This document shows positions 7,892 to 64,000 of a stretch of DNA of 64,000 bases, one piece after another. Origin of the DNA: Bacillales bacterium UBA2753. GTDB taxonomy: Bacteria > Bacillota_I > Bacilli_A > RFN20 > CAG-826. The translations under genes and the position numbers were made by a program. Position 1 is the stretch's first letter; every line of letters starts with the position of its first letter. Location: NCBI GenBank assembly GCA_002353275.1, contig DEJH01000041.1:34201-98200 (forward strand), given 5' to 3'. The notes below the pieces were generated by a model. It was not told the DNA's origin. It did not search any database and saw only the letters and a program-made list of their open reading frames with translations.

Positions 7892-8020
7892 AAGTTATTT
7901 TTATTATAAATAAATTATGAAAGAATTAATCAAAAAACAAACATAACTAGCAAAAAAACAAGATTGGGCTTAAACTTTTATAATTTTAAACAGTGATCGT
8001 GATCTTAAAAATATGTAAAA

Positions 8021-12014: not shown

Positions 12015-12142
12015 TTTTTTACTCTCCTATTAATTCTTTTTAAGTATAAATCAAATTCGTCATGTATTTTATGTAGAATTCATTTTTTCTTGAGTCAATC
12101 AAACAATAACTTTTATTAACATTCTCAATAAATGTGCCTGTT

Positions 12143-12165
12143 TGTGTCCTACTTTATATGATATT
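12143..12165 (+). promoter_or_regulatory. operator-like motif TGTGTCCTACTTTATATGATATT, copy 1, in the WYL gene promoter
   Basis: 22 of 23 nt identical to 13953-13975. Followed by TATAAT at 12166-12171. Confidence 0.5.
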
Positions 12166-12187
12166 CTATAATACAAGGAAACCAAAT

Positions 12188-33694: not shown

Positions 33695-34326
33695 ATCATT
33701 ATATGGTTAGTTTGAATTATTTCATTTACCGTTTCAATTAAAACTGAGAAAGATTGCTTACCGGTTTGTTTGTTTAGGTTGATGTTTTTCTTTCTTAAAT
33801 ATAGTTCCTTTATTTGTTCCCAATAACCATTTCTTTTTAAAAATAAGAATCTGTGTTCAAAATTTCTTGACTCAGGAACTTTGTTCCAAATATATCTACA
33901 AGTGTTTTTTTCTTTTATATTTACAATTTTATACAAGAAGCCATCATTCGCTTCTACCATGATTGCAACATCAAATGAAAAGTCATAATCTTCCAGTTGC
34001 CCTATAAAGCATGTTATCACTTGTGTTGAGTCGCTAACTTTAGCCTTATAGCCACAAGCATACTTAAGAGCGTCCATAAATAAGTGTTTTATTTTCTTTG
34101 GATTATCTATTAGCTGTTTTTTGTCTCTTTGAAGAATTAAATTGTAATCAAGATCCACTTTTTTATTATTGCCATTAATAGTCATAAGGCGACTTTCGCC
34201 ACTTCCAATTAATTTAAACGAAAATGTAAAATAATCCTTAAGATGTTTTTGAGCGCGGATTATTTTCGATTCACAAAATTCACAATAAGCAGTCCTTTGG
34301 TGTTTGCTTTCAATATATCTAAACAT
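33691..34326 (-). CDS. minimal Pol-beta superfamily nucleotidyltransferase (SMODS or MNT-like), 211 aa
   Basis: IGSGESRLMTINGNNKKVDLDYNL (GS-x13-DxD) plus downstream acidic FDVAIMVE. Stop overlaps the Abi_2 start (ATGA). Confidence 0.55.
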   Translation of the reverse strand: MFRYIESKHQRTAYCEFCESKIIRAQKHLKDYFTFSFKLIGSGESRLMTINGNNKKVDLDYNLILQRDKKQLIDNPKKIKHLFMDALKYACGYKAKVSDSTQVITCFIGQLEDYDFSFDVAIMVEANDGFLYKIVNIKEKNTCRYIWNKVPESRNFEHRFLFLKRNGYWEQIKELYLRKKNINLNKQTGKQSFSVLIETVNEIIQTNHIMI

Positions 34327-47291: not shown

Positions 47292-48988
47292 TATAACTTG
47301 AAAAACTAAATTCCGTTTTTAGAATTAAACTTTGTTTTTCGGAATTTTCTCTTACAAATGTTATGTTTTATATGTCTATGCTTCCGTCGAAAGGAGGTCA
47401 TCATATGAAACAAAAGCATATGACAAAAGAAATGCGAGAACGCATTGAAAAAGGTATTAGAGAAGGTGAATTTTTAATAGAAATTGCTAATGCGATCGAT
47501 AAAGACCCTACTACTATATCGAAAGAAGTATACAAACATAGAAATAAGGTTATAAAAGATCCTAAATCCACTGTTGTATCTAGCTTCTGCACAAAGTGTT
47601 CTAATTTTCAAAAATGTGACATTATCCATTTATGCAAAACACAAGGATGCAGCAAAAAATGTAAAAGTTGCTCTAGTCTTAATCCAACATTAATTTGTTC
47701 ATTTTTTATCGAAAACAAATGTAAAAGATTAAGTAGATTTCCTTATGTTTGTAATGGATGTAGTAAAAGATTAAGGTGTCGATTAGAAAAATATGAATAT
47801 GTTCCTATAACCGCTCAAAGGGATTATGAAAAAGAACTTCATGAATCTAGACAAGGATTAAACCTCACTGGTGATGAATTTAAAAAGATTGATGAGGTTT
47901 TCAAGGAAGGATTTGAAAACGGACAATCCATCAATCATATAATCGCTAATAATCCAGAACTTAAGATATCAGTTAAAACAGGATATAACTATGTCAATTC
48001 TGGTAATTTCCAGGTTAAACACAATGATTTACCTAACTATATGAATCATATTCTTAAGAAAAGGAAGATTATTTCTAAAGATTATGAATATCAAGAAAAT
48101 AGAGATATGAACCGTAAAGGAAGGGAATATTACGATTATCTTCTATATATCGACACAAACGATATTGTTTATCACGGAGAACTAGACTGTGTTGGGATAA
48201 CAAAAGATTATGTCGGAGCTTTACTTACTATCATCATTCCTAAATGGAGTTTCTTACTTTTATTTAAGCTAGACATAAAAGATATGGCTCACGTTAATAG
48301 TTGTATCAATTTTGTTTATAAAGCAATGGGTTATGACAAATTCAATAAATATTTAGGGGTTCTTTTAACAGATAGAGGCCCAGAATTTAATGACTATCAA
48401 GGAATTGAATTTGATGAAGATGGGGTTAGAAGATGTAGACTATTCTACTGTGATTCAGGTCAATCCACTCAAAAACCATTTGTAGAAAGAATTAATCGAG
48501 AAATAAGAAGATATGTCTTTAAAGGACAATCGGTTGAGAATTTATCTCAAATAGACTGTGATTTAATCGCTTCTTACATTAACAACATGACTTTAGATGG
48601 ATTAGGCAATAGAACGCCATATGAATTCGCGAAAAGATTTTTAGGTGAAGAAATCCTAGAAAAATTAAATATCGAATACATTAAAGCGAATGATTTAATT
48701 ATCAAAAATATCGATTAAATAAAGCACGAATTAAAAAAATCCAAGTAGAAGGAAGCTACCTGGATAAGCATATGACGGAAGCATAGAACTGAATTTACTC
48801 TTACAACGGAATTTACCGTAATCTTTTCTTATGCTTTCCTAACTCTATTTTTATCGCTATTTTTGTTGCTTTGCAAGAGTTTGAAACACTTAATTCCGTT
48901 TTAATTAAAGAAAAACTCCGTTAAATAGCATTTAATCTTTCAAACAAAATTTTAATTCTATAAACGGAATTTAGTTTTGCAAGTTACA
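47292..48988 (+). mobile_element. IS30-family-like insertion sequence (about 1.7 kb)
   Basis: About 45-bp imperfect terminal inverted repeats (TAACTTGAAAAACTAAATTCCGTTTTTAGAATTAAA vs TAACTTGCAAAACTAAATTCCGTTTATAGAATTAAA on the opposite strand). Multiple subterminal AATTCCGTT/AACGGAATT copies. Flanked by direct 14-bp ATAGGAGACAAAGA (47278-47291, 48989-49002). Confidence 0.6.
47405..48718 (+). CDS. IS30-family DDE transposase with Cys-rich N-terminal extension
   Basis: N-terminal HTH MTKEMRERIEKGIREGEFLIEIANAI. DDE core (GELDCVG ... LTDRGPEF ... ERINREIRRY). C-terminus FKGQSVENLSQIDCDLIASYINNMTLDGLGNRTPYEF matches the IS30 signature. RBS GGAGG. Confidence 0.75.
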   Translation: MKQKHMTKEMRERIEKGIREGEFLIEIANAIDKDPTTISKEVYKHRNKVIKDPKSTVVSSFCTKCSNFQKCDIIHLCKTQGCSKKCKSCSSLNPTLICSFFIENKCKRLSRFPYVCNGCSKRLRCRLEKYEYVPITAQRDYEKELHESRQGLNLTGDEFKKIDEVFKEGFENGQSINHIIANNPELKISVKTGYNYVNSGNFQVKHNDLPNYMNHILKKRKIISKDYEYQENRDMNRKGREYYDYLLYIDTNDIVYHGELDCVGITKDYVGALLTIIIPKWSFLLLFKLDIKDMAHVNSCINFVYKAMGYDKFNKYLGVLLTDRGPEFNDYQGIEFDEDGVRRCRLFYCDSGQSTQKPFVERINREIRRYVFKGQSVENLSQIDCDLIASYINNMTLDGLGNRTPYEFAKRFLGEEILEKLNIEYIKANDLIIKNID

Positions 48989-49085: not shown

Positions 49086-49646
49086 TTAAATAATATTAGC
49101 TTTATTCGGTAAATATTTTGACAAAACAACAAGTATGTTGCTACAGTTAAGTTCAATGGCTAGCTTGCTTAATCTTTCCTTATCAACTCTGCTAATCATA
49201 TTGTTTTTTGCAAAATCTTTTGCTTCCTGTGTTTTGTTTGTTAAAGTTTCTGGCTCAACTTTTAGAAAAACATTTTCGGCGTTTTTGCAAAACCAAACAA
49301 GTTCATATTCTTTTTCGTTAATGTAGTCACACAAATTGTGAAAGAAAGAACCTTTCTTATACGCTTTTTCAGTCGAATCGGTATCAATGAAATAAATAGT
49401 AACTGTCTTACCACCTTCATTATATGACCTAAACATGTTTTTAAGATTTTTAATTTTGTTCTCGATTTTTTTATTTTTGTAATTTGCTTTGCCACCTAAT
49501 GTAATCCACTGAATGTTAACACCAGACGTGTCAAAAAAGTGTTTAATCACATCGTTAATATAGACAGCATCTGTTTTTTCTTCACTCGAGGTTTCTGCAA
49601 CAAGTAAAAGTTGAAGAGGATTATCCATTATTTGTTCCTCCTCCAA
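49086..49646 (-). CDS. small acidic Toprim-like/DUF4276-like protein partnered with an ABC-type ATPase
   Basis: LLLVAETSSEE and IYFIDTD acidic clusters. Start overlaps the upstream ATPase gene by 26 nt. Confidence 0.45.
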   Translation of the reverse strand: MEEEQIMDNPLQLLLVAETSSEEKTDAVYINDVIKHFFDTSGVNIQWITLGGKANYKNKKIENKIKNLKNMFRSYNEGGKTVTIYFIDTDSTEKAYKKGSFFHNLCDYINEKEYELVWFCKNAENVFLKVEPETLTNKTQEAKDFAKNNMISRVDKERLSKLAIELNCSNILVVLSKYLPNKANII

Positions 49647-50994
49647 AAACTTTTACAAAATCTACAGAACTGATATTAAATGGTGAATTAGGAATCATTC
49701 CATGTCTATATAAATTAACGACTGAATAATTACCATTTCTCTTCCACGAAGTAATTTTTTTGCCGTTGATGAAATCAATTGAATGTTTTAATTTATATTC
49801 ATCCAGTAACTCCATTGGGCCTAAATTATGTGTTGTGAAAATAAATTGTCCATTGGTAAAACCAATAAAATACTCAATTAGTTTGCATAAATATACATCG
49901 TGAATATTGGAATCAAACTCATCAATAAAAACAATTTCTCCATTTTCAATCGCATTTAAATATGGGAATAATGTAATCAATTTCTTTACTCCACTACTTT
50001 CAAATTCAGAAGACACTTCAATATCTTTTGCTTCGCCTTTATAAACAAGTATTTTTTTGCAGTAATATTTCTCTCTGTTTATGGTTTTATCAATTTTAAT
50101 GTCCTTTAAATCTGGCTTAAACACTTTGATAAATTGGCACACCCTCTTGATCTCTTTTTCATATTCCTTAAATTTTTTTAAATCAACTTCATCTATCTCG
50201 TTATCTATTAATACTTTTTGCGTCTTTAAATCGTTCTTTTCTTTATTCATTTGAATCTTATCTATAATTGCAATAATGCGCTCATATGACTCATAGTGTT
50301 GATCTCTTTTGTCAATATAAACATTAATACTAATAGCAAATAATAAAGTATTTAAAATCGCATAGAAAAATGATGTTTCTTTGCCTGTTAAATGTTTCTT
50401 ATAAGAAACTTCTCGCTGTGTACTATAAACAATCAATGATACTAATGCAGATGCCGATTCTAATAAGTTTTTGGTTTCTTTTTCAATGTCGTCTTTTAAA
50501 TGAATAACACGATCATTCAAGTAAACAAAATCTCCATCTTTGGTTTCAAATACTTTTTCTTCGTTATCAATATTTCCCCATGTTTGGCCTTGAACGACAC
50601 TTAATAACTCATGAATAATCATTAAGTTTTCATCTTTTAAAGAATACTCAAGAATATGATGAAAAACATCTCGCGTCCTGCCGTTTTCAATCATCGCAAA
50701 ATATAAATCTATATAAACTTTTTCGATTTGATGATTGATCAATTCTTTAAAGCCGCCAACATAACTCTCGCCTCTTAAGTAATTGGGATTTAATAATGTT
50801 CTCTTATAAATGTCTAAAGTATGTGCTATTGCGGTCTTGCCTTCGCCATTTGTGCCATAAATTGCTTTAACCATTGGTTTTTTACCATATGTGTCATCAA
50901 TCGTTTTATTTGCAAACTGTATTTCAATTGGCTCATCAAGGCACTTAACACCATATGTTTTTAAGTTAAGTAAAACAAATCTGGTATTTTCCAT
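49621..50994 (-). CDS. ABC/OLD-type AAA ATPase (AAA_15/AAA_21-like), 457 aa
   Basis: Walker A IYGTNGEGKTAI. Walker B IVFIDEFDSNIH. H-loop FTTHN. Long helical insert between. Confidence 0.75.
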   Translation of the reverse strand: MENTRFVLLNLKTYGVKCLDEPIEIQFANKTIDDTYGKKPMVKAIYGTNGEGKTAIAHTLDIYKRTLLNPNYLRGESYVGGFKELINHQIEKVYIDLYFAMIENGRTRDVFHHILEYSLKDENLMIIHELLSVVQGQTWGNIDNEEKVFETKDGDFVYLNDRVIHLKDDIEKETKNLLESASALVSLIVYSTQREVSYKKHLTGKETSFFYAILNTLLFAISINVYIDKRDQHYESYERIIAIIDKIQMNKEKNDLKTQKVLIDNEIDEVDLKKFKEYEKEIKRVCQFIKVFKPDLKDIKIDKTINREKYYCKKILVYKGEAKDIEVSSEFESSGVKKLITLFPYLNAIENGEIVFIDEFDSNIHDVYLCKLIEYFIGFTNGQFIFTTHNLGPMELLDEYKLKHSIDFINGKKITSWKRNGNYSVVNLYRHGMIPNSPFNISSVDFVKVFGGGTNNG

Positions 50995-51217
50995 AGTTAA
51001 TCACGCTCCGTATCAATATTATATTATCTTTGATTTTCATATTTCAATATAAAATATACATTTTGTATTTTTTGTATTAACAACATAAAAATTATGTGTT
51101 ATCTTTTATACATGGAATCTAAAAAGCTTCCTCAATTATAGATAATTATAGTCCTTTAACAATCATCGTTGTTGGATAAGGATTATAACAGCAACGATGA
51201 TGTGTGGAATAAATTCC

Positions 51218-51245
51218 GCCATCATATTTTGATGGCTTTTTATAT
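51218..51245 (+). terminator. intrinsic terminator/attenuator in the leader of 51276
   Basis: GCCATC-atatttt-GATGGC followed by TTTTTATATT, 30 nt before the AAGGAGGT RBS. Preceded by a 10-bp stem ATCATCGTTG...CAACGATGAT. Confidence 0.55.
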
Positions 51246-51275
51246 TCAAATAACATAGAAAGGAGGTAACTAAAC

Positions 51276-51524
51276 ATGCAACTTGATTCTGTTTTAGCCA
51301 AAAATCGTCCATCGCCATGGAACGAAGCCGACTATATTGAAGCGTACAAAAAAGTCGTCCCAAGCGCTACTCAAGACGACAATTATGATATTGCAGCTGT
51401 TATAACAAGCGGCGGTGTTAACGGACACGCACTAATGTACTACAGTTACAATAGAAGCCATGATAATCAATATCATATATGTTATCATTTTGTTTCTGAT
51501 AATGAATTAGTTTATTTCATTTAG
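51276..51524 (+). CDS. hypothetical small protein, 82 aa
   Basis: Strong RBS AAGGAGGT 7 nt upstream. No motif. Confidence 0.5.
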   Translation: MQLDSVLAKNRPSPWNEADYIEAYKKVVPSATQDDNYDIAAVITSGGVNGHALMYYSYNRSHDNQYHICYHFVSDNELVYFI

Positions 51525-51755
51525 AAAAAGAAAGCATCCATTAATCGTCCTAACACGCATGATTTATGTGATGTTTTTTTATAAACATTGTTCTAATCGT
51601 GTGCTCTACATTTTTTGTAGCTATTCGAGACAAAGCACCGATGTTATTTTTTGCGCGGTTTCATGTATTTGCAATAAATAAAATATAAAAGGGCTCTATC
51701 TACACGAAAGATCATAAAGCCAATATTTCATAAGTGTTTGTCTAATTAAAGGGCT

Positions 51756-51985
51756 TCACTTAACACCATTATATTTCTTCCTACTATATAAAGCGTATCT
51801 GAATACATATTTCCAGCTCTTAAGCCAATTTAACTTTTGAGTGTTCTTATAAGCAACATGCATATGTTTAAGTAATTTAAACTTATTATAGTTTTTACTT
51901 CCTGGATGGATAACATATGTCATTAAGACAGATTGGTTTCCATATGCCTTAATATTTCTAACCAGAAGACGTAGTCTTCATGTCT
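51756..51985 (-). pseudogene. 3' fragment of a GT2 glycosyltransferase gene, paralogous to 58745-59491, with internal frameshift
   Basis: Translates to RHEDYVFWLEILRHMETNLS*, then after a frameshift ...KLLKHMHVAYKNTQKLNWLKSWKYVFRYALYSRKKYNGVK*. The intact gene reads HEDYILWLSIL...GFNWLKSWMLVFRYALYSKKKYRDVK. About 80% nt identity. Confidence 0.65.
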
Positions 51986-52017
51986 TTACATTTAGTATTA
52001 TGAGCAATAAATAAAAA

Positions 52018-52164
52018 GGGTCAAATCAATCAACCAATAGTACCAACGCATAAAATACGTTGTACTAACTCGACCCTATAAGGGCCATTACTCCACCGAC
52101 TCTCAAGAGCCATAGGTGGGTTGACAACCGTGATCAATCACTTTAGCTACCCTTAAAAGGGTCC
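52018..52164. other. GC-rich, highly self-complementary 150-bp element of unknown nature
   Basis: GGGTCaaatc...GTACCAACG-cataaaata-CGTTGGTAC...GACCC, then CCACC-gactctcaagagccatag-GGTGG, ending AAAAGGGTCC. Far above local GC content. No ORF. Confidence 0.3.
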
Positions 52165-52341
52165 TTATATTCTTTTGAAGACAGATTATCTTGAATCATG
52201 TCCTCTTTTTTGTTTCGTATATATTTCTGGACTTTCTTTGTATCAAGACCCGCTGTTGATACGTAGAAACCTTTCGTCCAAAAATAAAATATTGTTTTTT
52301 ATAACAACCTTTATAAAAGTGGCTTGGCTCAACTCATTCAT

Positions 52342-53139
52342 TTAATACATATATTCCAAAGAAGATAATGGATCTTCCTGTTCAATTAATATCTTGTCTT
52401 TATATTTAAGTCTATATTTAGTAGGAACATTAATGTCCTCTTTGATATATCTAATCATGTTCCCTTTAGTTGGTGCTTTTAAGTTATGACCACCTAAAGA
52501 AGATATATCTAATTCAAAAATGAATTTTCCTTTTTTGATTATTATCTTATCTTCTTTTTTAGATAATATCTTTCCTCCATTATATGTACAGAAACGATAT
52601 TCATAATCTTTGCCTTTGATGAAACAAAGTAAACCAGTGAAGTTAATAAATCCTAATAATGGAATAGTTGCTATCGCTAATGTTACTGTACACTCCTCAG
52701 TTACTGAGTTATACCAGATATATTTGGTAGGGAAGGAATGACCACTATCACCTTCGATATATCCTAAAGAATTACTAAATGTGATTTTCTTATTCTTATT
52801 TAAAGCAAGCACTCCATTAACTCTATGATACATGGAATATATTTCATGTTTACATTCCATAGGAAGAATAGAGAAAGGTCCCATTACTTTCTTAGATAAT
52901 GGATGTAGTTCTCCTAATGTAAGATTTCCTTCTAATGAAATATCATCTTCATGAATATTAATACTAATAACATTATTATTTATATCTACTGATTTAGTGT
53001 CTTTAACAAAATATCCTTTAGTGGGTGTTACTAACTGCAACATATCTCCCTCGTTAGCATGAGAGACAATTAAAGCAAAAGTATATCCATCATTACTGAT
53101 AAATTTATAGTATTTACCAAAGAATCTATTTTTCTTCAT
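52342..53139 (-). CDS. hypothetical protein, 265 aa
   Basis: ORF with mixed beta-rich sequence. No motif recognised. Confidence 0.55.
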   Translation of the reverse strand: MKKNRFFGKYYKFISNDGYTFALIVSHANEGDMLQLVTPTKGYFVKDTKSVDINNNVISINIHEDDISLEGNLTLGELHPLSKKVMGPFSILPMECKHEIYSMYHRVNGVLALNKNKKITFSNSLGYIEGDSGHSFPTKYIWYNSVTEECTVTLAIATIPLLGFINFTGLLCFIKGKDYEYRFCTYNGGKILSKKEDKIIIKKGKFIFELDISSLGGHNLKAPTKGNMIRYIKEDINVPTKYRLKYKDKILIEQEDPLSSLEYMY

Positions 53140-53279
53140 GTAGTCTTGATTTTATTATACATGAATTGTCTTTCGCCGACTGTAATAATGCCTAATTTTA
53201 TTTGGCACAAATCATTCCGGCTGTAACAACCTTTGTTAATCAATGAAGAATAAATGACCTTATAATCATTAGCCAAGAA

Positions 53280-54077
53280 TTATTGTATCTTTTGAGTAAA
53301 ACATTCATTTAACAAATCATAATGAAAGACTTGATCAGCAATAATGAACGTAATAACAAAAATCAAAAGCAGCCCAATACAAGTAAATGTTAAAATTAGT
53401 TTTCCTTTTTCAGATAACAAGCGATTTTTTATCCAAAGATAGATTTTTGATTCGCTCCCATAATCAAATTCTTTAATGGCTTCAATTGGCAAATCACCTT
53501 TCCAAAACTTTAGGCTTCCTTTTTTATTGTCAAAATCTATTTCTATTTTTTGTGCGTAAAACATCATAGTGTCATCATTCATTGGCTTAATGGGCTTCAA
53601 TAAGATTCCACCATCGCTTGTTGGGATATAAATACACAGCCCTTTATCTTTGCCTGCCACGACAATGCTGTATCGTTGTTGAGGTATCTTTTTCCTTTCA
53701 TTATATTCAACGCCATTAGCTTCATATCCATCAAAAACTTTGCTGAGAGGAGTTCTGTTAAAAACTATGTTTTGCATCCACAACATATAGCTTCTTGCTC
53801 TTTGAGAAAAATAAAAATAGTCTAGGAAAAAGTAAATGATCGCCACAATATTCCCTATAATTTGAAAGATAAGTTGAAAAACATATTCGGGTTTTGCAAA
53901 AGAGAAAAGAAAATTAAATACAGTAAACTCAATTAAAAATATGGCACGGACAATTTTCTTAAAAAGAAAATAATTTTTCAACTTAGCATCTTTCATTATC
54001 CCATCAATGGCAAAAAACGCTAGTTCTTCTATGAGCGTCAGCAGAAAGAAAATTGAAGTGATAATCGTTGTGTACAT
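53280..54077 (-). CDS. hypothetical membrane protein with C-terminal PH-like region, 265 aa
   Basis: Three N-terminal TM helices and a C-terminal TM. No catalytic motif. Confidence 0.55.
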   Translation of the reverse strand: MYTTIITSIFFLLTLIEELAFFAIDGIMKDAKLKNYFLFKKIVRAIFLIEFTVFNFLFSFAKPEYVFQLIFQIIGNIVAIIYFFLDYFYFSQRARSYMLWMQNIVFNRTPLSKVFDGYEANGVEYNERKKIPQQRYSIVVAGKDKGLCIYIPTSDGGILLKPIKPMNDDTMMFYAQKIEIDFDNKKGSLKFWKGDLPIEAIKEFDYGSESKIYLWIKNRLLSEKGKLILTFTCIGLLLIFVITFIIADQVFHYDLLNECFTQKIQ

Positions 54078-54500
54078 GTGTCAGTTATCCTTTTAATAAC
54101 TCAATTATAATCTAAATCAACTTGCACTTCTCTCTTTTTGATAGATTTATAGGCATATAAGGAATAAGCATCATCATGCACGTTAAAGATATAATTATGT
54201 TGGACAAGTAATACCCGAGCAATAATGGTACTGCAATCAGTTTGCATATTTCTGCTTACGGTCTGCATATTATTTGGTCATTTATATGCAAACAATTTAT
54301 ACTCACTAAACACTTTTGCGATATTTAGTAAAACTGGTTAGTAGAAAAGTGACGTTAAATCTAAGTTATAGCGTAAACTTTTGTATTTTTTTCAAATTAT
54401 TACGCTTTAAAACCCATTTTTCGTGATTCGCATGAATAATCTAAAAAAACATAACAAAATCGCATGTTATGTATTTTTTGTAACCCCTACATTTACTACA

Positions 54501-54646
54501 TGCAGAAAAAAGAATACCAACAATTAATTAAAAACATCAAAGATAAATTAATAAAACTCCAATCATCTATATCAGTGTACGCTTTTGGTAACACAAGAGG
54601 AGGGATGGGCATTAAAAAATTAGAAGACTTAGATATATGGATTTGA
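54501..54646 (+). pseudogene. possible remnant of a minimal nucleotidyltransferase (N-terminal GS/DxD region only)
   Basis: VYAFGNTRGGMGIKKLEDLDIWI resembles the MNT motif LFGSxARGxxxxxSDIDL, but only 48 codons long. Confidence 0.25.
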
Positions 54647-54864
54647 TAACGGTTACATGAAATTATATTAATTGTATGATTGTAGTTGACAATAGGTGCC
54701 AAACATTAATAAATTATTGATACAAGAGATATCCTTTATAGGATGAAGAGGTGCCGAGTGATCGACGCCTTTTTAATTTTTATTCACCAAATTTATCATA
54801 CTATTTTGCCTAATCTATTTTCTAAATAAGCAACAAAAAGGAATAAGTCTCAGCTAAAAACAAA

Positions 54865-56355
54865 TCAGTATTTTAAAAAAATATAGTTAATAAATTCTAT
54901 TAGTGAAGTCTTTGAATCTAAACTATCATTAAACAATATGCTATCTACATCAATAGACTTCTTAAAGTTTGTTATTTTGATTAAATAATTTAACTCGTTT
55001 TGGATATATTCAACTATGCGATATTCTGAGAACAATTTAGAATGTCCTTTAATTTGATTATTATCGTTAATTTCATAAATTATTGGAAACAAGTTCACAA
55101 TATAATACATAAGCGAATAATAGAGTTTAAGGAATTTTCTTTTTCCTTCTTTTGTTTTACCGTAATATTCATCAAGATTATTCTTAAAATAATTAACAGT
55201 ATCACTCCACTGATGAATATTGGTTCTTTTGCCTGATCTAATCTTTTTACTACTATAATTAGGCGGCTCAATTCCAATATTATAATGCTCATTAAAGTAG
55301 TCACAAACAGAAACAATGAACAACGAAACGTTTGTTGAAACATTAGCACCATGTTCCAATGCTTCTTGTTTTGCCTCAGCGGTAAATATTTGTGATAAAT
55401 TATCTTTAAATGCTGAGCCTTCACGAATAATAAAGTCAGGCGTTATATCCTCAATATTTTTTTCGAATAGCCATTCCAAATCGAAGAGATGATTAGTTGA
55501 ATTAGCTTTGGTCCATACATCTTTCAAAAATGGATAATATTGTCTGAGGGTATAGGATCTTAATACCTTTGAATTAAAATACCTCATTCCATTTACAAAT
55601 ACTTTTTGTTCATTACTTAGAGACAATTTTTTGTTACTAATTTCTTTAGTTTCTGCATCTATTAAATCAGAAACTAGATTCATTTTAGAACAAACATCAT
55701 TAATGTTTTTTTCGGGCGCTTTCTCTAAGCTCTTATCTGGCAAATAAATATAAACTCTCTTGTCAAGGCTTGCTGGTTTAGAAGATATGTCATATTGAAT
55801 TAAATCAAAATGAGGAGGTGAGGCACTTATTATTGATGGATAATTCTCCTCCTTTTTTAACACAATATAAACAAACGCTGTATTTTGATTAGATTTATAC
55901 GTGTAACTTTTGTATTTTAAATAATCGCTAGCGAGATTCAATAAAACTAATTTATTCTCCATTTTATACTCAATAAATAATTGCGTTGTTTCATCGCTGC
56001 CAAAAACATTTTTTACCTGGATATAGCCATCTACATAACATTTATCCCATTGAGTAGTTCTTGTTTTTAAACTGGTTGTGCTTCTAAGGGAATCAAATTC
56101 AGACATCGTTAGTTTGTTTTTAAGTTCAATTGGAAATTCATTAACGGTCAATTGCGTTGTATATCCCTTATTTTTTAATAAACAGCTCAACATAGCCGTT
56201 GAAAATCCTGCAACCGTTCTTTCGTTTGTAAAAAATGCACGGTTATCAGTTTGATAATCAAATATTTTTTTATTTATATTAAATCTTAAAGCATATTTTT
56301 TGATGCTTTCATCTAGTTCAAAAATTATGCTATCTAAATCGGTCTTTGTTATCAT
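54865..56355 (-). CDS. hypothetical protein, 496 aa; N-terminal region has a PD-(D/E)xK-like D...EYK pattern
   Basis: VDGYIQVKNVFGSDETTQLFIEYK fits hD-x14-ExK. Remainder unrecognised. Own promoter region (660-bp gap upstream). Confidence 0.6.
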   Translation of the reverse strand: MITKTDLDSIIFELDESIKKYALRFNINKKIFDYQTDNRAFFTNERTVAGFSTAMLSCLLKNKGYTTQLTVNEFPIELKNKLTMSEFDSLRSTTSLKTRTTQWDKCYVDGYIQVKNVFGSDETTQLFIEYKMENKLVLLNLASDYLKYKSYTYKSNQNTAFVYIVLKKEENYPSIISASPPHFDLIQYDISSKPASLDKRVYIYLPDKSLEKAPEKNINDVCSKMNLVSDLIDAETKEISNKKLSLSNEQKVFVNGMRYFNSKVLRSYTLRQYYPFLKDVWTKANSTNHLFDLEWLFEKNIEDITPDFIIREGSAFKDNLSQIFTAEAKQEALEHGANVSTNVSLFIVSVCDYFNEHYNIGIEPPNYSSKKIRSGKRTNIHQWSDTVNYFKNNLDEYYGKTKEGKRKFLKLYYSLMYYIVNLFPIIYEINDNNQIKGHSKLFSEYRIVEYIQNELNYLIKITNFKKSIDVDSILFNDSLDSKTSLIEFINYIFLKY

Positions 56356-57014
56356 TGCTTATTTTCTCCTAAATGTTATCAACGAATTTATTTTCAAATA
56401 TAGCAAGGCAGCAATGCCTTACTGATATATTAAACTTAAATATAATTTAAATTCCTTATTATTAATATTGTTGCATTTAATTATGGTTATACAAGATATA
56501 TTTTAAGAAACATACTTTATATAGTATTTATAACGCTCGTCAAGAGTGCTTATGTTGACGTTTGCAATCCTAATAGAAGATATCTTAACAAGTTTTAAAA
56601 AGACTTGATGAATAGATGGACAAACAATACGCTAATCAGCAATATCTGTACAAAAATACATAGATATACCTTCAATTTTATTTAGTGTTTGATTAAATTA
56701 TTCACTATGTTTCTGAAAATCTAAATTTGCATTAACTTTTGCGTTAGTAGACGATTCACCATATAAAGGAAGTAGTTAAACATTAAGCATAGCGACTTAA
56801 TAGAGTTATACCCTTACACTATAATAGTCATTAAGATTATCTAATCCAACAACCTCATCATTTGTTGTCCCCAAAAGAGTTTGCATAAGCAAACAGATGT
56901 AAGTAATAGTCCTAGAAATAGAATAAAAATGTAGGTATTGCCAAAAGCATTATTTTTTGATTTATTAGTTCAGCAAACTGTCTTTCGTCAACTATATTAA
57001 TACAAAAAAATAAA

Positions 57015-57767
57015 CTAAAGCATTTTTATTTCATTTCTGGTGTTGTTGAGAATGATAGATATTTTAGATGTGTCGAGAATCTTAAAATTAAAAGTATCAG
57101 AACTAACATTGTACTTATAAACGACATCAGGGAAACAAATGTATATGATATCAAACATATATTTTTCTGAAACATTTAAATTATGAAAAAGTTCCTTTTC
57201 GATATAACCCTGCATCATTTGTGCCATTTCTTCTTGATAATCAACTCCCTCAGAAATAATTGCATAGTCAATATAGACACCAACAATGTTGTTAGGTAAC
57301 AGTTCGTAGTTATCATTGAGTTTGCGTATTTTTTCATTAATCTTACTTACAATCATATGAGAATTAAACTCATCGCTTGGTACAAAACCAATTTGCCCTG
57401 CAAGCACCAAATCGCCATTTGATCTTTGCAACAAAACTATTATCCCGTTTTGCACGCTTGAAATATAAAAAACAGGGACACCACTTGCATCCTGATATAC
57501 TCTGTCTTTATAGAATCCTAGGATGTTCAAAAAGCCCTCTGGAATGTCTTCTAAATTCTTGTTCATATATTTTCGTAGTAGAGAATTTAAGGTGTTCTGT
57601 GTATCAGAGGCGGCCGTAACAATTTCTAACCCAACTGAATCAGATTTGAAATCCGGACTTTCGTTTTTAATTAAACTATTAAAAGATGGGTCAAAAGTTA
57701 ACTGTATATAGTTTTTAGCAAGAAGCTCGTAAAAAGTTTTCCAATAGTCATGATGTGTTTTATCCAT
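57015..57767 (-). CDS. hypothetical protein, about 250 aa
   Basis: ORF 68 nt downstream of the TIR-like gene. Start chosen at MDKTHHDYW. No motif. Confidence 0.55.
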   Translation of the reverse strand: MDKTHHDYWKTFYELLAKNYIQLTFDPSFNSLIKNESPDFKSDSVGLEIVTAASDTQNTLNSLLRKYMNKNLEDIPEGFLNILGFYKDRVYQDASGVPVFYISSVQNGIIVLLQRSNGDLVLAGQIGFVPSDEFNSHMIVSKINEKIRKLNDNYELLPNNIVGVYIDYAIISEGVDYQEEMAQMMQGYIEKELFHNLNVSEKYMFDIIYICFPDVVYKYNVSSDTFNFKILDTSKISIILNNTRNEIKML

Positions 57768-57865
57768 GTTTTTAAACCTCTTAAATTTTTGCACCAATTG
57801 ATTATTCTTTGAAATTCCGTTAAACGCCGCTCTTTTGTACGCTTGTAGAACTTGTGAAAATAACC

Positions 57866-58693
57866 CTAAAAAATATTCAAATCAATATCAAGACCTGACG
57901 CTTTCATATTTTTTGCTATTTTTAACTGCCAAATCTCGTCATTCGTCATTCGGACATATATTACTCCGCTAATATCACCCGGCGTTTCTATATCATCGTT
58001 TTCTAAAACAGCACAAACCTTTTCTCTTCCTAGTGTGCCAATCATAAAGCCATGCTCAAAAACCACATTTTGACGAGCGCGATATTTTGCTTCATCTTGT
58101 TTATTTACTTCATAGCCAATATCACATTTTGTATACAACACAATACAAAAACAAACGTCACCAGAATAGTTCTCAATCTTCTCGATAATGGTTTTACCGC
58201 CATCCGGTTCTTTGAATAAAACAATTGGATTATACCCAAGTTTCCTAACAAGATTCTCTATCGATTCCAACCTATTGGTGTCGTGACCATGCACAATGAA
58301 AACATTTTTAGAATTATTTTTTCCAATAAATGTGTTTTTAGAAACTAATGCATTTTTCTCGCTAAGGGCTTTTTTTACGAACTCCTCAGTAACGTCCTTT
58401 GAATTTCCTCTGCCATTAATTACAGTGTCTTCAGATATACCCAAAGCGGCAATGCCAGCAGAGTAAAATCTATTTCGTATGCTATGCATTTCGTTCTCAA
58501 TTGTATCTTTTGTTTCACATATTTTAAATCTATCAATGCAGCTTTTATTAACGATATAGCCATTAACCAAAAAATCCTGTTCAGATATGTATAATTTAGT
58601 CAATTCTTCTACTTTCTCAAATGACAAATCACACAAAAAAGAGGTTGTATCCTTCTTGTGGTTGGAATGTTTAACTAAAATGTGATAATACAT
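57866..58693 (-). CDS. TIR-like nucleotide-binding domain protein (CAP12/PycTIR-type TIR_like) with unknown N-terminal domain, 275 aa
   Basis: C-terminal NVFIVHGHDTNRLESIENLVRKLGYNPIVL ... YRARQNVVFEHGFMIGTLGREKVCAVL ... PGDISGVIYV matches the TIR_like (COG4271) pattern. Confidence 0.7.
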   Translation of the reverse strand: MYYHILVKHSNHKKDTTSFLCDLSFEKVEELTKLYISEQDFLVNGYIVNKSCIDRFKICETKDTIENEMHSIRNRFYSAGIAALGISEDTVINGRGNSKDVTEEFVKKALSEKNALVSKNTFIGKNNSKNVFIVHGHDTNRLESIENLVRKLGYNPIVLFKEPDGGKTIIEKIENYSGDVCFCIVLYTKCDIGYEVNKQDEAKYRARQNVVFEHGFMIGTLGREKVCAVLENDDIETPGDISGVIYVRMTNDEIWQLKIAKNMKASGLDIDLNIF

Positions 58694-58744
58694 ATTTATT
58701 CCTCCTTAAATACAAATCGTAATCTTCAAAAAATAATACAATGT

Positions 58745-59491
58745 CTACTTAACATCCCTATATTTCTTTTTACTATATAGAGCGTATCTAAATACCAACA
58801 TCCAACTCTTCAGCCAATTAAATCCTTGTGATTCATGGTATACACGATACATCGATTTAACTAATTTAGATTTGTTAGAGTTTTTGCTATTTTGATGAAT
58901 GACATAAGTTGCTAATACTTTATGGTTACCTTTGGCAACTATTCCTCTTTTAAGAATAGATAACCACAAAATGTAGTCCTCGTGCCTATCATATGTTTCA
59001 TCAAAGAAAACATCACCAATAACTTCTCTATCATACATAGTGGTTAGACAAGATAAAGGATTACCTCTTAATGCTTTTTTATAATTAGTTTCTTCAGGTA
59101 CAAAGAAATCAGTACATGTATGTTCTGCTTGTCTTCTATATCCCGCTGAAATAAGTGGCCCATTATCTTTAATAAATTCTAATTGGCATTCTAAATAATT
59201 AGGATCTAATAAATCATCAGAATCTAAAAATGTGATATATCTGCCAGTCGCGTGTTTTAATCCGATATTTCTCGCTACTGCAGATCCACCATTTTTAGGT
59301 GTTTGAAGCACCACTATTCTTTCATCATCTTCTACTAACTCTTTTATAAATTCAAAAGACCCATCAGTAGAACAGTCATCCACAATAATCCATTCCCAAT
59401 CTTTAAATGTTTGAGAAAGGACACTATCAAAAGTAGCCTTAAAGACTCGTTTGCAGTTATAAGATGGGGTGATGATGGTGATTAAAAACAT
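58745..59491 (-). CDS. GT2-family glycosyltransferase
   Basis: ITIITPSYNCKRVFKATFDSVLSQTFKDWEWIIVDDCSTDGS and FLDSDD motifs. Confidence 0.85.
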   Translation of the reverse strand: MFLITIITPSYNCKRVFKATFDSVLSQTFKDWEWIIVDDCSTDGSFEFIKELVEDDERIVVLQTPKNGGSAVARNIGLKHATGRYITFLDSDDLLDPNYLECQLEFIKDNGPLISAGYRRQAEHTCTDFFVPEETNYKKALRGNPLSCLTTMYDREVIGDVFFDETYDRHEDYILWLSILKRGIVAKGNHKVLATYVIHQNSKNSNKSKLVKSMYRVYHESQGFNWLKSWMLVFRYALYSKKKYRDVK

Positions 59492-59515
59492 AATAATTTA
59501 TCTCTTTGTTTAAAT

Positions 59516-62119
59516 TTAATCATCTTCTTTATCAAATGAAGGTATAACTACTTCAGATGCTCTCCATTTTGATTTATAAAAGCAAGGAACAAATTTCAAA
59601 ACCATATCTTCTTTTAATAAATGATAGTCAAAATCCAGATTGTAAAAACCGAAAGTAAAATATCTGGTGTTTTTACCTTTTATTGATCCAAACATTTTTT
59701 CTGTATCAATGGTTTTCAAATATCCAAATTCAAATGATTCAAATTTAAAGTTGAGAGTTTTAATGTCATAATCTGTTAAAAAGGATTCGTTGGTTTGATT
59801 TATGAAACGAATTTGATCTTCTGGTGTTTTTTCAAAAATAAAAATATATTTAAAATACTTTCTTGTAAACTCTTTCCCAATTTCAACTGCATCTTTATTA
59901 TTTACAGAGAGTACTAAGAAATCGTATATTTTCCTCAATCCTTTATAAAAACCAATTGTGTAAAAATCAGTCCTGACAGTATCAATATAGTTGATTAATT
60001 TAATTAATTTATTTTTTTTGGAACTAAAGTTTGATGGCTCTTCGTCTATTATTCTAAATTCGAGATCCACATATTCATTAATCATTTTAGATCTAAAACC
60101 ATCATCAATTTCGCTTGTTGGCTTCAGCAATTCAAATATAATGGCTTCCGCGTCTTTAAAATTCTTCTCGTATTTAAGAATTCTAGCATAATTAGCCTTA
60201 AAATAAGGGTTATCCGGAATGTACTCTAATGCGATTTTAATATGACGTTTTGCCTCGTCATAATTACCTACCTGATTATTTAAGAAAATAGAATAAATAC
60301 TCTCAATGTATGGAGCATTTGTTTCGTCGGCCTGTTCTAAAGCAATTTCAAAACATTCTCTAGCTTTATCAATAATGTAATTTTTTGCATAACAATAACC
60401 TGCAACTTTATATAAATCAGCAAATGAAGGAGAGGCTTTAGATGCTTTGTCAAACCAATCATCCATTGCATCAATATCCTGCTTGTTGGACGAATCAATA
60501 AAGTTGAGCATATAAATAGTGGCTATTTTTTCACTAGAGGTTTTTGGATTTAACGATAGAGGCTTATTTTTGCTTGTAATTTTATCATTTGTATAAAGAT
60601 TTTCAATTATACTTTCTAACTTATTGCTGCGATTAAGATAATCATTAAAAGAAATATCCTTTTTATTTATTTTCACCGATAAATATTTTCGTGCAAATTC
60701 TGGAACGCTATAAACACCGCGATCTATTTGCTGAAGAAAATTACAAGCACACAGTTCGTTTACGGCTAGTGCAGCCGATTCATAATCTTTATCGTATATA
60801 TAAACTATTTCAGCCATACCAAAATCTTTTTGTTTAATCATCATAATTGTTAAAACCGATTTGGCAGGTTCTGATAGTTTTTCAAACACATTTGATAAAC
60901 AATACTCGACTATCTCATCTTGATTTTTAATAACAAAATCTGGATTATTGCCTTTCCCGACATTAATTATGAACCATTTAATACAAAGCGGAGAACAATA
61001 AAGCTTTTCAGTATAATTATCAACTTCCTTATTACTAATATTTTTTAATAAGGTAACATCATAAACATCAACAAGTCTCCTAAAATAAAAATTGGCTTCA
61101 TCTTTTGTAAACGGATCTAAGGGAATTCTGGTTTCAAATTCCCCGATTCCAATCCTAGAAGTTATTAGAATTTTTGATCCATCAGGTACTTCTTCAAAAA
61201 GCTTTCGAACATCATTTGTATTAATTGTTTCAAGATTATCCAAAATTAGAAGCGTTTTAAAAGCGCCCATATAAAATAGCAAGTCATCGATTGCTGAAAC
61301 TTTTTCTTTATTTAGGATTTGATTTCTTTTAATACAATCATCGAAAGATTTGACATAGTTTTTTATATTTTTAAATTCGCCATCAACCAACGATTTTGTT
61401 TTTAATGATGTCCATAACACTTTCTCAAATGGAAAATCGTCCTCATCAATTAAATCCGAAATTAAACTAAGAACAATTGATGTTTTACCAATTCCTCCAT
61501 CTCCGATAATTGTTATAATCGGATACCGTCCATATAATTTTCTTTTTATATCTTTTTTCTTTTCTTCTCTCCCAATAAAACCAGTATCATCGTAATCTAC
61601 CAACGGCAAATTATTTTCGATCTGAGTTTGAATGTAAAGCAAGTCAAAATTTGGAGTTTTTTCATAGAAAACATTTGGATTTTTATCAATTAGTTCTATA
61701 CTGTTGTTTAAATGAGAAAAGCCAATAATAGTGTTAAAATTACTATAATCTCTTACAAATGATAATATTATCCCTTCTTCATCATGCTTGATTGGCCTGG
61801 AATGCATAACCTTGTTTCGAATAGGCGTGATTTCTTTTAATTTGGAGATTATTTTTTTTGTAATTACCGGATCTATATTATTTATTTTAAAATGTTGGTT
61901 TAATATTTCGACATAATCCCCAAAGTCTAAATACATAACGATGGAAGAATGGTCGTTTTTATCAATTTCTTTATTTGCTGCTCTTTCAAGTGCTTTTTCA
62001 GAGTAACCAAAAATATTGACATTGTTTTCAATAATGTATTCTCTCATATCGAGTTCAATTGAAGAAATATACTCAAACAACAAATTTCTTCTTAATTTAT
62101 AGTTCAAAAAAGTTGGCAT
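59516..62119 (-). CDS. STAND (NB-ARC-like) NTPase with C-terminal TPR repeats and an N-terminal HEPN-like domain, 867 aa
   Basis: Walker A ITIIGDGGIGKTSIVLSL. Walker B KTLLILDNLE. TPR-like helical repeats from about residue 560. N-terminal PIRNKVMHSRP (Rx4H). Confidence 0.75.
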   Translation of the reverse strand: MPTFLNYKLRRNLLFEYISSIELDMREYIIENNVNIFGYSEKALERAANKEIDKNDHSSIVMYLDFGDYVEILNQHFKINNIDPVITKKIISKLKEITPIRNKVMHSRPIKHDEEGIILSFVRDYSNFNTIIGFSHLNNSIELIDKNPNVFYEKTPNFDLLYIQTQIENNLPLVDYDDTGFIGREEKKKDIKRKLYGRYPIITIIGDGGIGKTSIVLSLISDLIDEDDFPFEKVLWTSLKTKSLVDGEFKNIKNYVKSFDDCIKRNQILNKEKVSAIDDLLFYMGAFKTLLILDNLETINTNDVRKLFEEVPDGSKILITSRIGIGEFETRIPLDPFTKDEANFYFRRLVDVYDVTLLKNISNKEVDNYTEKLYCSPLCIKWFIINVGKGNNPDFVIKNQDEIVEYCLSNVFEKLSEPAKSVLTIMMIKQKDFGMAEIVYIYDKDYESAALAVNELCACNFLQQIDRGVYSVPEFARKYLSVKINKKDISFNDYLNRSNKLESIIENLYTNDKITSKNKPLSLNPKTSSEKIATIYMLNFIDSSNKQDIDAMDDWFDKASKASPSFADLYKVAGYCYAKNYIIDKARECFEIALEQADETNAPYIESIYSIFLNNQVGNYDEAKRHIKIALEYIPDNPYFKANYARILKYEKNFKDAEAIIFELLKPTSEIDDGFRSKMINEYVDLEFRIIDEEPSNFSSKKNKLIKLINYIDTVRTDFYTIGFYKGLRKIYDFLVLSVNNKDAVEIGKEFTRKYFKYIFIFEKTPEDQIRFINQTNESFLTDYDIKTLNFKFESFEFGYLKTIDTEKMFGSIKGKNTRYFTFGFYNLDFDYHLLKEDMVLKFVPCFYKSKWRASEVVIPSFDKEDD

Positions 62120-62295: not shown

Positions 62296-64000
62296 TTATT
62301 TTTTTGCATTTAATTCCAAATACATTCTTTTGGCATAATTGTCAGTCATGCCACTAATAAAATCAATTATGAGTCTCATTTTAAGATATGCAACCATTTG
62401 TTTATTTGCGCCATCAATCTCAATAAAAAAATTATCAATCAATTTTTCAGGAATCAACAACAATATTTTATTCCTATAATCTCTGTCTTTTATTCCTTTT
62501 GAATTCTTAATTGTTTTATTTCTTTTATTTATTTTTGCATCAATAATAGCATCAAAAAACTCGCTCAATAGAAAGTTTAAAATTTTGTTTCCTTGAATTT
62601 CGTTAATAATAATTAACTTTGACGAAAATACTAAATCTGTTTTTATCTTGCCAAGTAATTTAATTATTTCGTGATATTGAGAAAAGTGGAGTAAATGAAA
62701 ATCCTCGCCAACCCCATTAACGACTATATGTTTATAAACGTTTAATCCAGTTTGAGGTATTGTTCCAATTTGATGGTAATTAAGTGAGGCGATTATATTT
62801 TCTCTCAATTCACTCAATAAAGGCCTGATTGTTATTTCGAAAGCCTCATGTCGATTTTTGTTATTCTTTATAGCTTTCGAAAATTTATTATCTAGCGAAT
62901 TATAAAAATTTGAGCAAATTGCATTCTTGTTGTTTTTGAAATAAAAAGCAAAATCTTCAAAAGATAAAACCTGCTTATGAATCGAATCTTCCAAATCCGA
63001 AAACAAATATGCGATATCATCTGCGGCCTCCAATACACAAGCAAAAGGATTCCTTTTGCCGTATATGAATACACCCAAATTATACAAATCATCTATGACG
63101 CTTTGTTCAGACAAAAAGAACCCAATTTTATTATTTTTTCCATTAGAAGAATGTGGGTATTTAATTATTGCGCCAAGTACTCCGGCCGACAAAGATGCGC
63201 CTCTCTTGTTTTTAAAAGGCATTAATTTTGAAGCAATTCTTAAAGATTGCGCATTTCCATCAAAAGAAATTAAATCATTAAAATAACTTGGGTATTTAAT
63301 TCCGATGCCATATTTGTTTAAAAAATCACCCTTGCTTTTAAAGAACGAATTAATGGTTTGTTCACCGGCATGACCAAAAGGCGGATTGCCAATATCGTGA
63401 AGCACACCAATAGTTCTACATAAAGAAATAGAATCTTGTAAATCAAACGTTAAAAATTTGTTGTTTATTGAAGCAGAATTAATAAAAACTTCCAACATTG
63501 AATTGCCTACTATTTGTTCAATGATAGCCGATACCTCAAGCGAATGAGCCAATCTTCTTCTTGAGTGATCAAATTCATCCATTAAGAAAAGTTGGGTTTT
63601 GTCTTGCAATCTACGGAATGTAGAAGAGGAAATGACCCGCAAATAATCAGATTCAAAATATGATAGTTTTTGTTCTCTATTACGAATATAGACACTATTG
63701 AACTGCTTTCTTATGCTCCATAATGCACCAGATGCATACTTATATATGTCAGCATAATTATTTGTTTGGACACAATTAATGAAATTATCTAAATTTTTTG
63801 CAGAATATGATGACGAGAATTTTGATCTTAAAAATACAAAGATGTTAATTAGATTTTTATATTTTTCAAAAAAATATTTAACATTGAGATAATTATTATT
63901 GTGAAGAGCAATCCTTAAGACGTGTTTTGCAGCGCAAAAAGCATTGATATCTATACTATTTTTTGTGATCTTAGAATGTGAAAAATCATCAATGTATGCT
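62296..64000 (-). CDS. dGTPase-family HD-domain triphosphohydrolase with N-terminal extension (5' end beyond window)
   Basis: STFRRLQDKTQLF, HSRRRLAHSLEV and LHDIGNPPFGH motifs. The reading frame stays open with no stop from 63642 up to 64000. The track start at 63640-63642 is a TTG. Confidence 0.7.
   Translation of the reverse strand, partial: AYIDDFSHSKITKNSIDINAFCAAKHVLRIALHNNNYLNVKYFFEKYKNLINIFVFLRSKFSSSYSAKNLDNFINCVQTNNYADIYKYASGALWSIRKQFNSVYIRNREQKLSYFESDYLRVISSSTFRRLQDKTQLFLMDEFDHSRRRLAHSLEVSAIIEQIVGNSMLEVFINSASINNKFLTFDLQDSISLCRTIGVLHDIGNPPFGHAGEQTINSFFKSKGDFLNKYGIGIKYPSYFNDLISFDGNAQSLRIASKLMPFKNKRGASLSAGVLGAIIKYPHSSNGKNNKIGFFLSEQSVIDDLYNLGVFIYGKRNPFACVLEAADDIAYLFSDLEDSIHKQVLSFEDFAFYFKNNKNAICSNFYNSLDNKFSKAIKNNKNRHEAFEITIRPLLSELRENIIASLNYHQIGTIPQTGLNVYKHIVVNGVGEDFHLLHFSQYHEIIKLLGKIKTDLVFSSKLIIINEIQGNKILNFLLSEFFDAIIDAKINKRNKTIKNSKGIKDRDYRNKILLLIPEKLIDNFFIEIDGANKQMVAYLKMRLIIDFISGMTDNYAKRMYLELNAKK

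Follow-up and report, generated by a model that had tools for sequence, protein, structure and literature searches.

Layout and genomic contexts of the three genes

We analysed a 64,000-nucleotide stretch of DNA from Bacillales bacterium UBA2753 (contig DEJH01000041.1; hereafter the window), in which three minus-strand genes had been proposed to form a new anti-phage system. All three open reading frames (ORFs) named in this original prediction (57866-58693, 57015-57797 and 54865-56355) are present. The first in the direction of transcription (57866-58693) encodes a TIR-like protein of 275 amino acids (aa), recognised by Pfam (PF10137) and by PADLOC models of the candidate family PDC-S35. The middle ORF is indeed open from 57797 and could yield the 260-aa product originally assigned to it, but the gene most likely starts at the ATG at 57767, giving a 250-aa protein (57015-57767) and leaving a 98-bp spacer to the TIR-like gene. 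This start is preferred because an AAGAGG ribosome-binding site lies 7 nt upstream, because a 250-aa product is called on the source contigs, and because of the lengths of the homologues, all of which are 249-250 aa with a conserved M-[DEK]-[KR]-THHDYWK start (one exception carries a 3' extension). The third gene (54865-56355) encodes a 496-aa protein that, like the 250-aa protein, belongs to an uncatalogued family.

A terminator scan found no terminator-like site between the TIR-like and 250-aa genes. The 250- and 496-aa genes are separated by a non-coding spacer that measures 659 bp (56356-57014), in good agreement with the 660 bp reported earlier, and that was examined by terminator scan, Rfam and blastn. 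It contains a terminator-like hairpin at 56879-56894, approximately 120 bp past the 250-aa gene, as well as the upstream boundary of the 496-aa module, placed at 56432 by blastn against a related locus (L099; L numbers denote the comparison loci). A search of positions 51000-60000 with Rfam gave no match. The G+C content is ~28-34% throughout the DNA, and the three-gene segment shows no compositional break. One gut-metagenome contig of 116 kb and a few other contigs carry an identical locus.

Relatives of the TIR-like protein were examined at 80 genome loci, where they are 33-57% identical to the window protein and approximately two thirds have the full-length architecture. No homologue of the 250- or 496-aa protein was detected at these 80 loci by tblastn or by family hidden Markov models (HMMs) at E ≤ 1. 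Clustering of up to three ORFs on each side of the TIR-like gene gave a largest neighbour family of only 4 out of 80 loci, those four being near-identical, and ten close same-strand downstream genes were found to be mutually unrelated, with a sugar dehydratase and a hydrolase-like protein among them. Full-length homologues stand alone on a 6.7-kb Acinetobacter plasmid and on a Bacillus plasmid. The TIR-like family thus has no obligatory partner, in line with the single-gene organisation of PDC-S35.

The 250-aa family was found in four informative contexts, none of which contains a member of the TIR-like or the 496-aa family. Its genes lie behind a complete type II-A retron protein pair, consisting of an NDT_II-A effector and a reverse transcriptase (L004-L007), behind a 394-aa membrane protein and ahead of a Bac_transf gene (L008), next to Abi_2, SIR2_2 and GmrSD genes (L010) and, in the case of a copy 86% identical to that of the window, next to an AAA_21 pair with an opposite-strand ORF upstream (L101, L102). 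The retron-associated loci derive from bovine and rumen metagenome contigs; the NDT_II-A/STM3845-like effector and RVT_1 reverse transcriptase occupy 5023-6937 in L004, directly upstream of the 250-aa homologue, and the arrangement recurs in L005-L007. Six further contexts were available for the 496-aa family, and both the TIR-like and the 250-aa family are missing from all six. Here the gene adjoins Fic and SMEK_N (L011), lies between AAA_13 and Abi_2 and AAA_21 pairs (L012-L015), among Macro, ADP-ribosylglycohydrolase, helicase and PLD genes (L016-L018), between Abi_2 and a KAP NTPase (L104-L106), or between KAP/AbiH and an AAA_21 pair (L107), while a 93%-identical copy adjoins Abi_2, AbiJ and RelA_SpoT (L099). 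Both families have defence-type neighbours in all contexts, mostly within polysaccharide loci. When the unannotated neighbours of the 250- and 496-aa homologues were scanned with PADLOC and Pfam, the only clear match was the retron II-A NDT effector. A scan of all loci with HMMs of the three families revealed no co-occurrence beyond copies of the window's own locus. At the nucleotide level, blastn homology to other loci is confined to gene-sized blocks, comprising 56998-57776 for the 250-aa gene and 54493-56432 for the 496-aa module, the latter 92% identical to L099. We also considered Abi_2 as a partner of the 496-aa gene, as it is adjacent in three of the six other contexts and persists as a stub in the window. 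This was rejected, as the Abi_2 proteins are only ~23% identical and occur in tandem, convergent and divergent orientations.

The three genes are therefore probably independent single-gene modules in a patchwork defence island at a GT2 glycosyltransferase gene rather than parts of one system: they do not co-occur elsewhere, even in the case of the closest relatives (the 93%-identical 496-aa and 86%-identical 250-aa copies), and the shared homology is gene-sized. A single three-gene anti-phage system now appears highly improbable. It can call only on same-strand co-linearity in the window and on the recurrence of the locus itself, in identical form, on further metagenome contigs. Its proposed partners are however not conserved with the TIR-like gene elsewhere, the 659-bp spacer with its terminator-like hairpin and module boundary isolates the 496-aa gene, and the 93%-identical 496-aa gene occupies a different island without the other two.

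A more restricted arrangement would pair the TIR-like and 250-aa genes as a lineage-specific two-gene system, with the former as sensor or signal generator and the latter as effector or modulator, leaving the 496-aa gene separate. The shared strand, the 98-bp gap and a terminator-like site only after the 250-aa gene are consistent with such a pair; furthermore, 250-aa homologues lack a conserved upstream region and are usually found close behind a same-strand gene. However, no other 250-aa homologue, not even the 86%-identical one, is accompanied by a TIR-like gene, none of the 80 PDC-S35-type loci has a 250-aa homologue or a conserved downstream gene, and the 250-aa gene elsewhere sits behind a complete retron II-A. 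The same adjacency logic would equally recruit the GT2 gene, located 51 bp upstream of the TIR-like gene. We consider a two-gene system quite unlikely.

Several observations nevertheless weigh against three independent modules. The TIR-like and 250-aa genes, which are on the same strand and 98 bp apart with no predicted terminator between them, may be co-transcribed in the window. The 250-aa sample comprises 8 clusters with the four informative contexts, a number that may statistically accommodate a lineage-specific partnership. Judged by sequence, the three genes have candidate defence roles only. PDC-S35 is likewise a candidate family only, and no main-text mention of it was found in the literature searched.

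The three protein families

The TIR-like protein matches PF10137 (CAP12-PCTIR_TIR) over residues 130-250 with 118.3 bits, compared with a cut-off of 24.7 (E 2.4e-34). The PADLOC PDC-S35 model PDLC05007 covers the protein nearly end to end (residues 1-273 on profile positions 1-275 of 278, E 7.9e-74), and four other PDC-S35 models match with E values from 1.9e-66 to 4.5e-42. By these profile matches, the 275-aa protein is a member of this PADLOC single-gene candidate family. The original prediction had described a novel N-terminal domain joined to a C-terminal TIR/CAP12-type domain, and had found no match to a named defence system for any of the three proteins. The TIR assignment stands, and the 250- and 496-aa proteins have indeed no Pfam, NCBIfam or PADLOC match. 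The TIR-like gene is however already catalogued as a PDC-S35 candidate, and its N-domain, although uncharacterised, is not novel on this profile evidence. PDC-S35 models extend across it and thousands of homologues of ~275 aa share it: a homology search at E ≤ 1e-10 retrieved more than 6,900 clusters of relatives across phyla, of which the top ~120 are nearly all ~275 aa in length and stem from Bacilli, Clostridia, Bacteroidota, Pseudomonadota and others. The layout consists of an N-terminal, family-conserved domain of ~100 aa, a variable linker and the C-terminal TIR domain; an alignment of 30 homologues shows conservation of the N-terminal domain (MYYH...YDL...DGY...RFKI) as well as of the TIR domain. 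PDC models derive from genes embedded in BREX, DISARM and type I restriction-modification (RM) systems (Payne et al., bioRxiv 10.1101/2024.01.29.577857). The window protein shares with its family the ~275-aa two-domain architecture and the lack of a conserved partner, but the window copy lies outside any BREX, DISARM or RM system, between the GT2 gene and the unrelated 250-aa gene, and its identity to the other sequences found does not exceed 51%.

A profile of the TIR-like family matches the solved Cap12 TIR proteins 9lmq and 7un8 (SfTIR-STING). The segment RARQNVVFEHG, containing E213 and invariant in the 30 homologues, aligns with R-D-NVVFEFG of both structures, and by analogy with SfSTING E213 would be the catalytic glutamate. 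The protein thus shares both the TIR subfamily PF10137 and the NVVFE(F/H)G glutamate motif with the Cap12 proteins of CBASS (TIR-STING, TIR-SAVED) and with Pycsar PycTIR. CAP12/Pycsar TIRs turn into NADases upon oligomerisation (bioRxiv 10.64898/2026.04.30.722052). By analogy, oligomerisation-dependent NAD+ hydrolysis would be the chemistry expected of the TIR-like protein too, which makes the suggested role of NAD-degrading effector plausible. In contrast to Cap12 and PycTIR, it has no STING, SAVED or cyclic nucleotide monophosphate-binding sensor domain, and its TIR domain is C-terminal, behind the family-specific N-domain. The NCBIfam Cap12 models score just 36.6 and 28.8 bits on it, compared with a cut-off of 450, and no CD-NTase or pyrimidine cyclase is encoded among the window or contig neighbours of the gene. 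With regard to Thoeris, none of the nine proteins scanned matched a PADLOC Ths model, and the TIR domain is of the PF10137 type rather than the ThsB type. As the surrounding genes encode no cyclase, SAVED, STING or Ths component and the Cap12 scores are far below cut-off, the profile comparisons indicate that the TIR-like protein belongs to none of the CBASS, Pycsar and Thoeris systems.

HMMER, run exhaustively against 1.84 billion representatives at E ≤ 1e-3, placed 123 proteins (clusters at 50% identity) in the 496-aa family, almost all of them 470-510 aa long. When 68 full-length members, down to 16% identical to the window protein, were aligned, the only invariant positions were E45, E73, D109, E129, K131, D144 and K147, with R46, Y130, A142 and F161 nearly invariant. 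In the predicted structure (predicted local distance difference test score, pLDDT, 81.5) these fall on a helix (47-62), three strands (66-77, 105-115 and 123-132) and a second helix (138-151). The D...EYK signature noted earlier is borne out as D109 and E129-Y-K131, embedded in a PD-(D/E)xK conservation pattern: the residues of an E...D...(D/E)xK motif are arranged on a predicted core of the alpha-beta-beta-beta-alpha-beta type. Alignment and model together identify the N-terminal region (residues ~40-170) as a PD-(D/E)xK nuclease-like domain. The hallmark E...D...ExK and the matching order of secondary structure are shared with stand-alone PD-(D/E)xK defence or Abi proteins and with effector domains such as Cas4, NucS, SwaI, NucC, HamA and the Avs4 N-domain. 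A Foldseek search of the model against the PDB returned nothing significant, with SwaI, HincII, Cas4 and cap-snatching endonucleases recurring in the list. The C-terminal ~300 aa are variable and mostly helical, contain no invariant position and have no recognisable relative. The ~490-aa architecture remains uniform among deeply diverged members, implying that selection acts on the protein as a whole. No Pfam or PADLOC match was obtained for any of the 68 members, and neither uncatalogued protein has a sequence-level match to known nuclease families in Pfam, NCBIfam or PADLOC.

The 250-aa family is far smaller, with 8 clusters that are 58-100% identical to the window protein; a metagenome scan for further contexts produced only one 1.1-kb contig, and no cassette-like motifs were found flanking the gene. 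The predicted structure (pLDDT 78.7, predicted template modelling score 0.71) comprises two similar alpha/beta lobes and superposes on CdiA-CT, NucC and restriction-enzyme cores. The modelled fold tentatively resembles that of restriction-endonuclease (PD-(D/E)xK)-fold proteins. A canonical D...(D/E)xK motif is however not found, its place being taken by a P38-D39...E48-I-V50 stretch with valine in the lysine position; catalytic competence is uncertain because this lysine is absent. Conservation is uninformative for the active site, all members being at least 58% identical. Profile-profile comparison of the 250- and 496-aa families revealed no relationship, and PDB sequence profiles gave only one borderline match for the two, to ORF99 (PDB 3djw). 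Neither family was found in the phage, plasmid or viral-contig collections searched.

A defence island at a glycosyltransferase gene

In the wider window, defence-type genes are scattered among the GT1, GT2 and TupA-like genes of a polysaccharide locus. The original prediction placed a defence island in this locus, with GT2 sequence at both ends. The two GT2 copies are confirmed: an intact TuaG-like gene on the minus strand at 58745-59491 (Pfam Glycos_transf_2 1.3e-35; NCBIfam TuaG-like 4.8e-59), and a decayed 3' fragment of a second allele, encoding aa 177-248, on the minus strand at 51758-51974 (tblastn, blastn). The fragment is 61% identical to the 3' end of the intact gene at the protein level (tblastn) and 74% by blastn, forming a diverged direct repeat with the copies 6,989 bp apart. 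The island is embedded in the polysaccharide locus as proposed, but is not confined between the GT2 sequences: a STAND NTPase and a dGTPase lie outside them, and AbiLi-like, YobI-like NTPase and Abi_2 genes are scattered through the locus.

Intact, frameshifted or fragmented GT2 copies border cargo in four related polysaccharide loci (the window, L099, L004 and L011). In L099, copies occur at 5668-6405, 7799-7927, 11903-12453 and 13298-13423, with an intact GT2 followed by fragments corresponding to aa 7-49, 64-207, 213-247 and 206-247. The 5' fragment lies immediately next to the 496-aa module, and the L099 pseudogene appears to have been split by inserted modules. L004 contains a frameshifted copy (11611-12359) and L011 a 3' fragment (3514-3636). 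Within the 659-bp spacer of the window, a 70-nt piece (56764-56832) matches one of the decayed GT2 3' remnants of L099 and is tentatively assigned, by transitivity, as a very decayed GT2 3' remnant itself. Because of this resemblance, the TIR-like/250-aa block and the 496-aa block are tentatively suggested to have arrived in separate events. For the two-gene arrangement of the TIR-like and 250-aa genes considered above, the same tentative remnant is a point in favour, as it suggests that both may have come as one cargo block.

At the other end of the 496-aa module, tblastn with the Abi_2 protein of L099 identified an Abi_2 remnant on the plus strand, comprising the C-terminal 48 codons (54494-54637). 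It corresponds to aa 266-313 of the L099 protein with 92% identity, is convergent with the 496-aa gene and coincides with a 60-aa ORF called on the opposite strand; in L099 the Abi_2 gene is intact. The window module therefore derives from a 496/Abi_2 arrangement that lost Abi_2, a recent loss. Between the 496-aa module and the GT2 remnant are two 265-aa ORFs on the minus strand (52342-53139 and 53280-54077), which have no family match and are absent from L099; one is membrane-protein-like with hydrophobic ends, while the other has a sub-threshold Tocopherol_cycl match.

Taken together, these GT2 copies suggest that the GT2 gene is a hotspot at which recombination or insertion recurs and defence genes accumulate. 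The GT2 remnants and the Abi_2 stub also indicate that the cargo has turned over repeatedly. This is reminiscent of defence-island hotspots and of serial accretion at the 3' end of a conserved gene, as in integrative islands at tRNA genes, with which it shares diverged 3' remnants of the anchor behind cargo blocks and different cargo at the same site in related genomes. In contrast to tRNA-gene islands, the anchor here is a glycosyltransferase gene in a polysaccharide locus, and neither an integrase nor any att-like repeat, RNA family or cassette motif was detected. The GT2 remnants share 51-84% protein identity, a range better explained by recombination between alleles, whether homologous or illegitimate, than by site-specific integration.

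It could be argued that the 250-aa gene, the 496-aa gene or both are non-immune passengers in permissive polysaccharide loci, either selfish or housekeeping (free-standing homing-type nucleases or mobile-element remnants). Both are gene-sized mobile units with unrelated flanks and nuclease-like folds or motifs, neither is matched by a known defence model, and disrupted GT2 copies adjoin them, with an IS30 transposase nearby (47363-48718). However, insertion sites vary by context, indicating no fixed homing site, and the two families are missing from the phage, plasmid and viral-contig collections. Every context is moreover rich in Abi, retron, KAP or AAA_21 genes, and the uniform ~490-aa architecture of the 496-aa family implies whole-protein selection. 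A passenger role is on balance unlikely.

Both genes that had been noted upstream of the three are present on the minus strand. The STAND NTPase gene (59516-62119), identified with Pfam and NCBIfam, encodes an N-terminal HEPN-like region with weak HEPN_Swt1 and DS11-antiphage similarity (NCBIfam DS11_antiphage C-terminal region, 2.9e-07), followed by NB-ARC (2.9e-07) and TPR (TPR_19) regions. The gene lies 24 bp upstream of GT2, and an R-x4-H motif, IRNKVMH, can be read in its translation. These features suggest an Avs-like STAND protein whose effector is a HEPN RNase. The dGTPase-family HD hydrolase gene (62296-64000; PADLOC dGTPase 7e-61; NCBIfam dGTP triphosphohydrolase) runs past the window end. 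The difference in length between the 576 aa on the source contig and the 448 aa in the ORF list had raised an alternative genetic code, which was rejected because the reading frame simply stays open up to the end of the window; the standard code applies. Both are neighbouring, separate defence genes.

Further genes of this kind are found on the other side of the segment. An AbiLi-like AAA_21 ATPase gene (PADLOC AbiLi 2.5e-29) overlaps a 186-aa partner ORF (49086-50994, minus strand), and the IS30-family transposase (HTH_38; plus strand) lies between this pair and another GT2 gene. A YobI-like P-loop NTPase of 1,202 aa (34363-37971, minus strand; PF20693 5.5e-78), probably encoded by a conflict-system gene, is located amid glycosyltransferase genes. 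Approximately 23 kb from the 250-aa gene, the region 33017-34326 (minus strand) contains a 211-aa ORF and an Abi_2-like ORF of 225 aa (33017-33694). In L010 (1627-2939) a 250-aa homologue is followed directly by a 211-aa ORF and then by an Abi_2-like 226-aa ORF, 59% identical to the Abi_2-like ORF of the window. The 211-aa, Abi_2-like and 250-aa modules shared by L010 and the window have therefore been reshuffled between related islands.

Proposed modes of action and implications

Returning to three independent modules as the preferred reading, the island would have grown by repeated recombination at the GT2 gene, within the polysaccharide locus of a low-GC gut bacterium with strong Shine-Dalgarno sites. 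Beyond the family membership, motif conservation, fold resemblance and genomic independence described above, we infer the following functional steps for the three genes. Judging by family membership, the likeliest role of the N-domain in the TIR-like protein is to detect an infection cue and then to bring about oligomerisation of the CAP12/Pycsar-type TIR domain. The oligomerised TIR domain would then hydrolyse NAD+ via E213 of the NVVFEHG motif, leading to NAD+ depletion and abortive infection. In the case of the 496-aa protein, motif, predicted fold and defence-island contexts point to a PD-(D/E)xK nuclease (E45, D109, E129-x-K131) as most likely, which would be restrained or targeted by the variable C-terminal helical domain and would cleave nucleic acid upon infection. 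The 250-aa gene would move as a bare gene among islands, landing behind different complete systems (PDC-S35 here, the type II-A retron elsewhere). From its modelled fold, it is most likely an autonomous nuclease or toxin-type defence gene with a non-canonical active site, although this is the least certain of the three assignments.

Tentatively, and with somewhat less than even confidence, we propose that the 496-aa protein founds an uncatalogued stand-alone family of anti-phage nucleases (~120 clusters at 50% identity), in which a PD-(D/E)xK core is combined with a fast-evolving helical sensor. The 250-aa protein would represent a second such family, and both would spread as bare gene-sized cassettes into the GT2 hotspot, independent of an integrase.

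The comparison removes a false lead, as adjacency within a defence island had been taken for a three-gene system where the comparative context reveals unrelated modules. The 275-aa protein adds an instance of the PDC-S35 candidate TIR family in a gut Firmicute-like genome. What is new here is limited to two previously uncatalogued families of candidate defence genes, both of the familiar stand-alone, nuclease-type kind, and to the GT2-anchored hotspot. The 496- and 250-aa families are enriched among Abi, retron and KAP genes, and represent cheap candidates for single-gene phage-challenge screens. The GT2 landing site couples surface-polysaccharide variation with immune-gene turnover in one hotspot.

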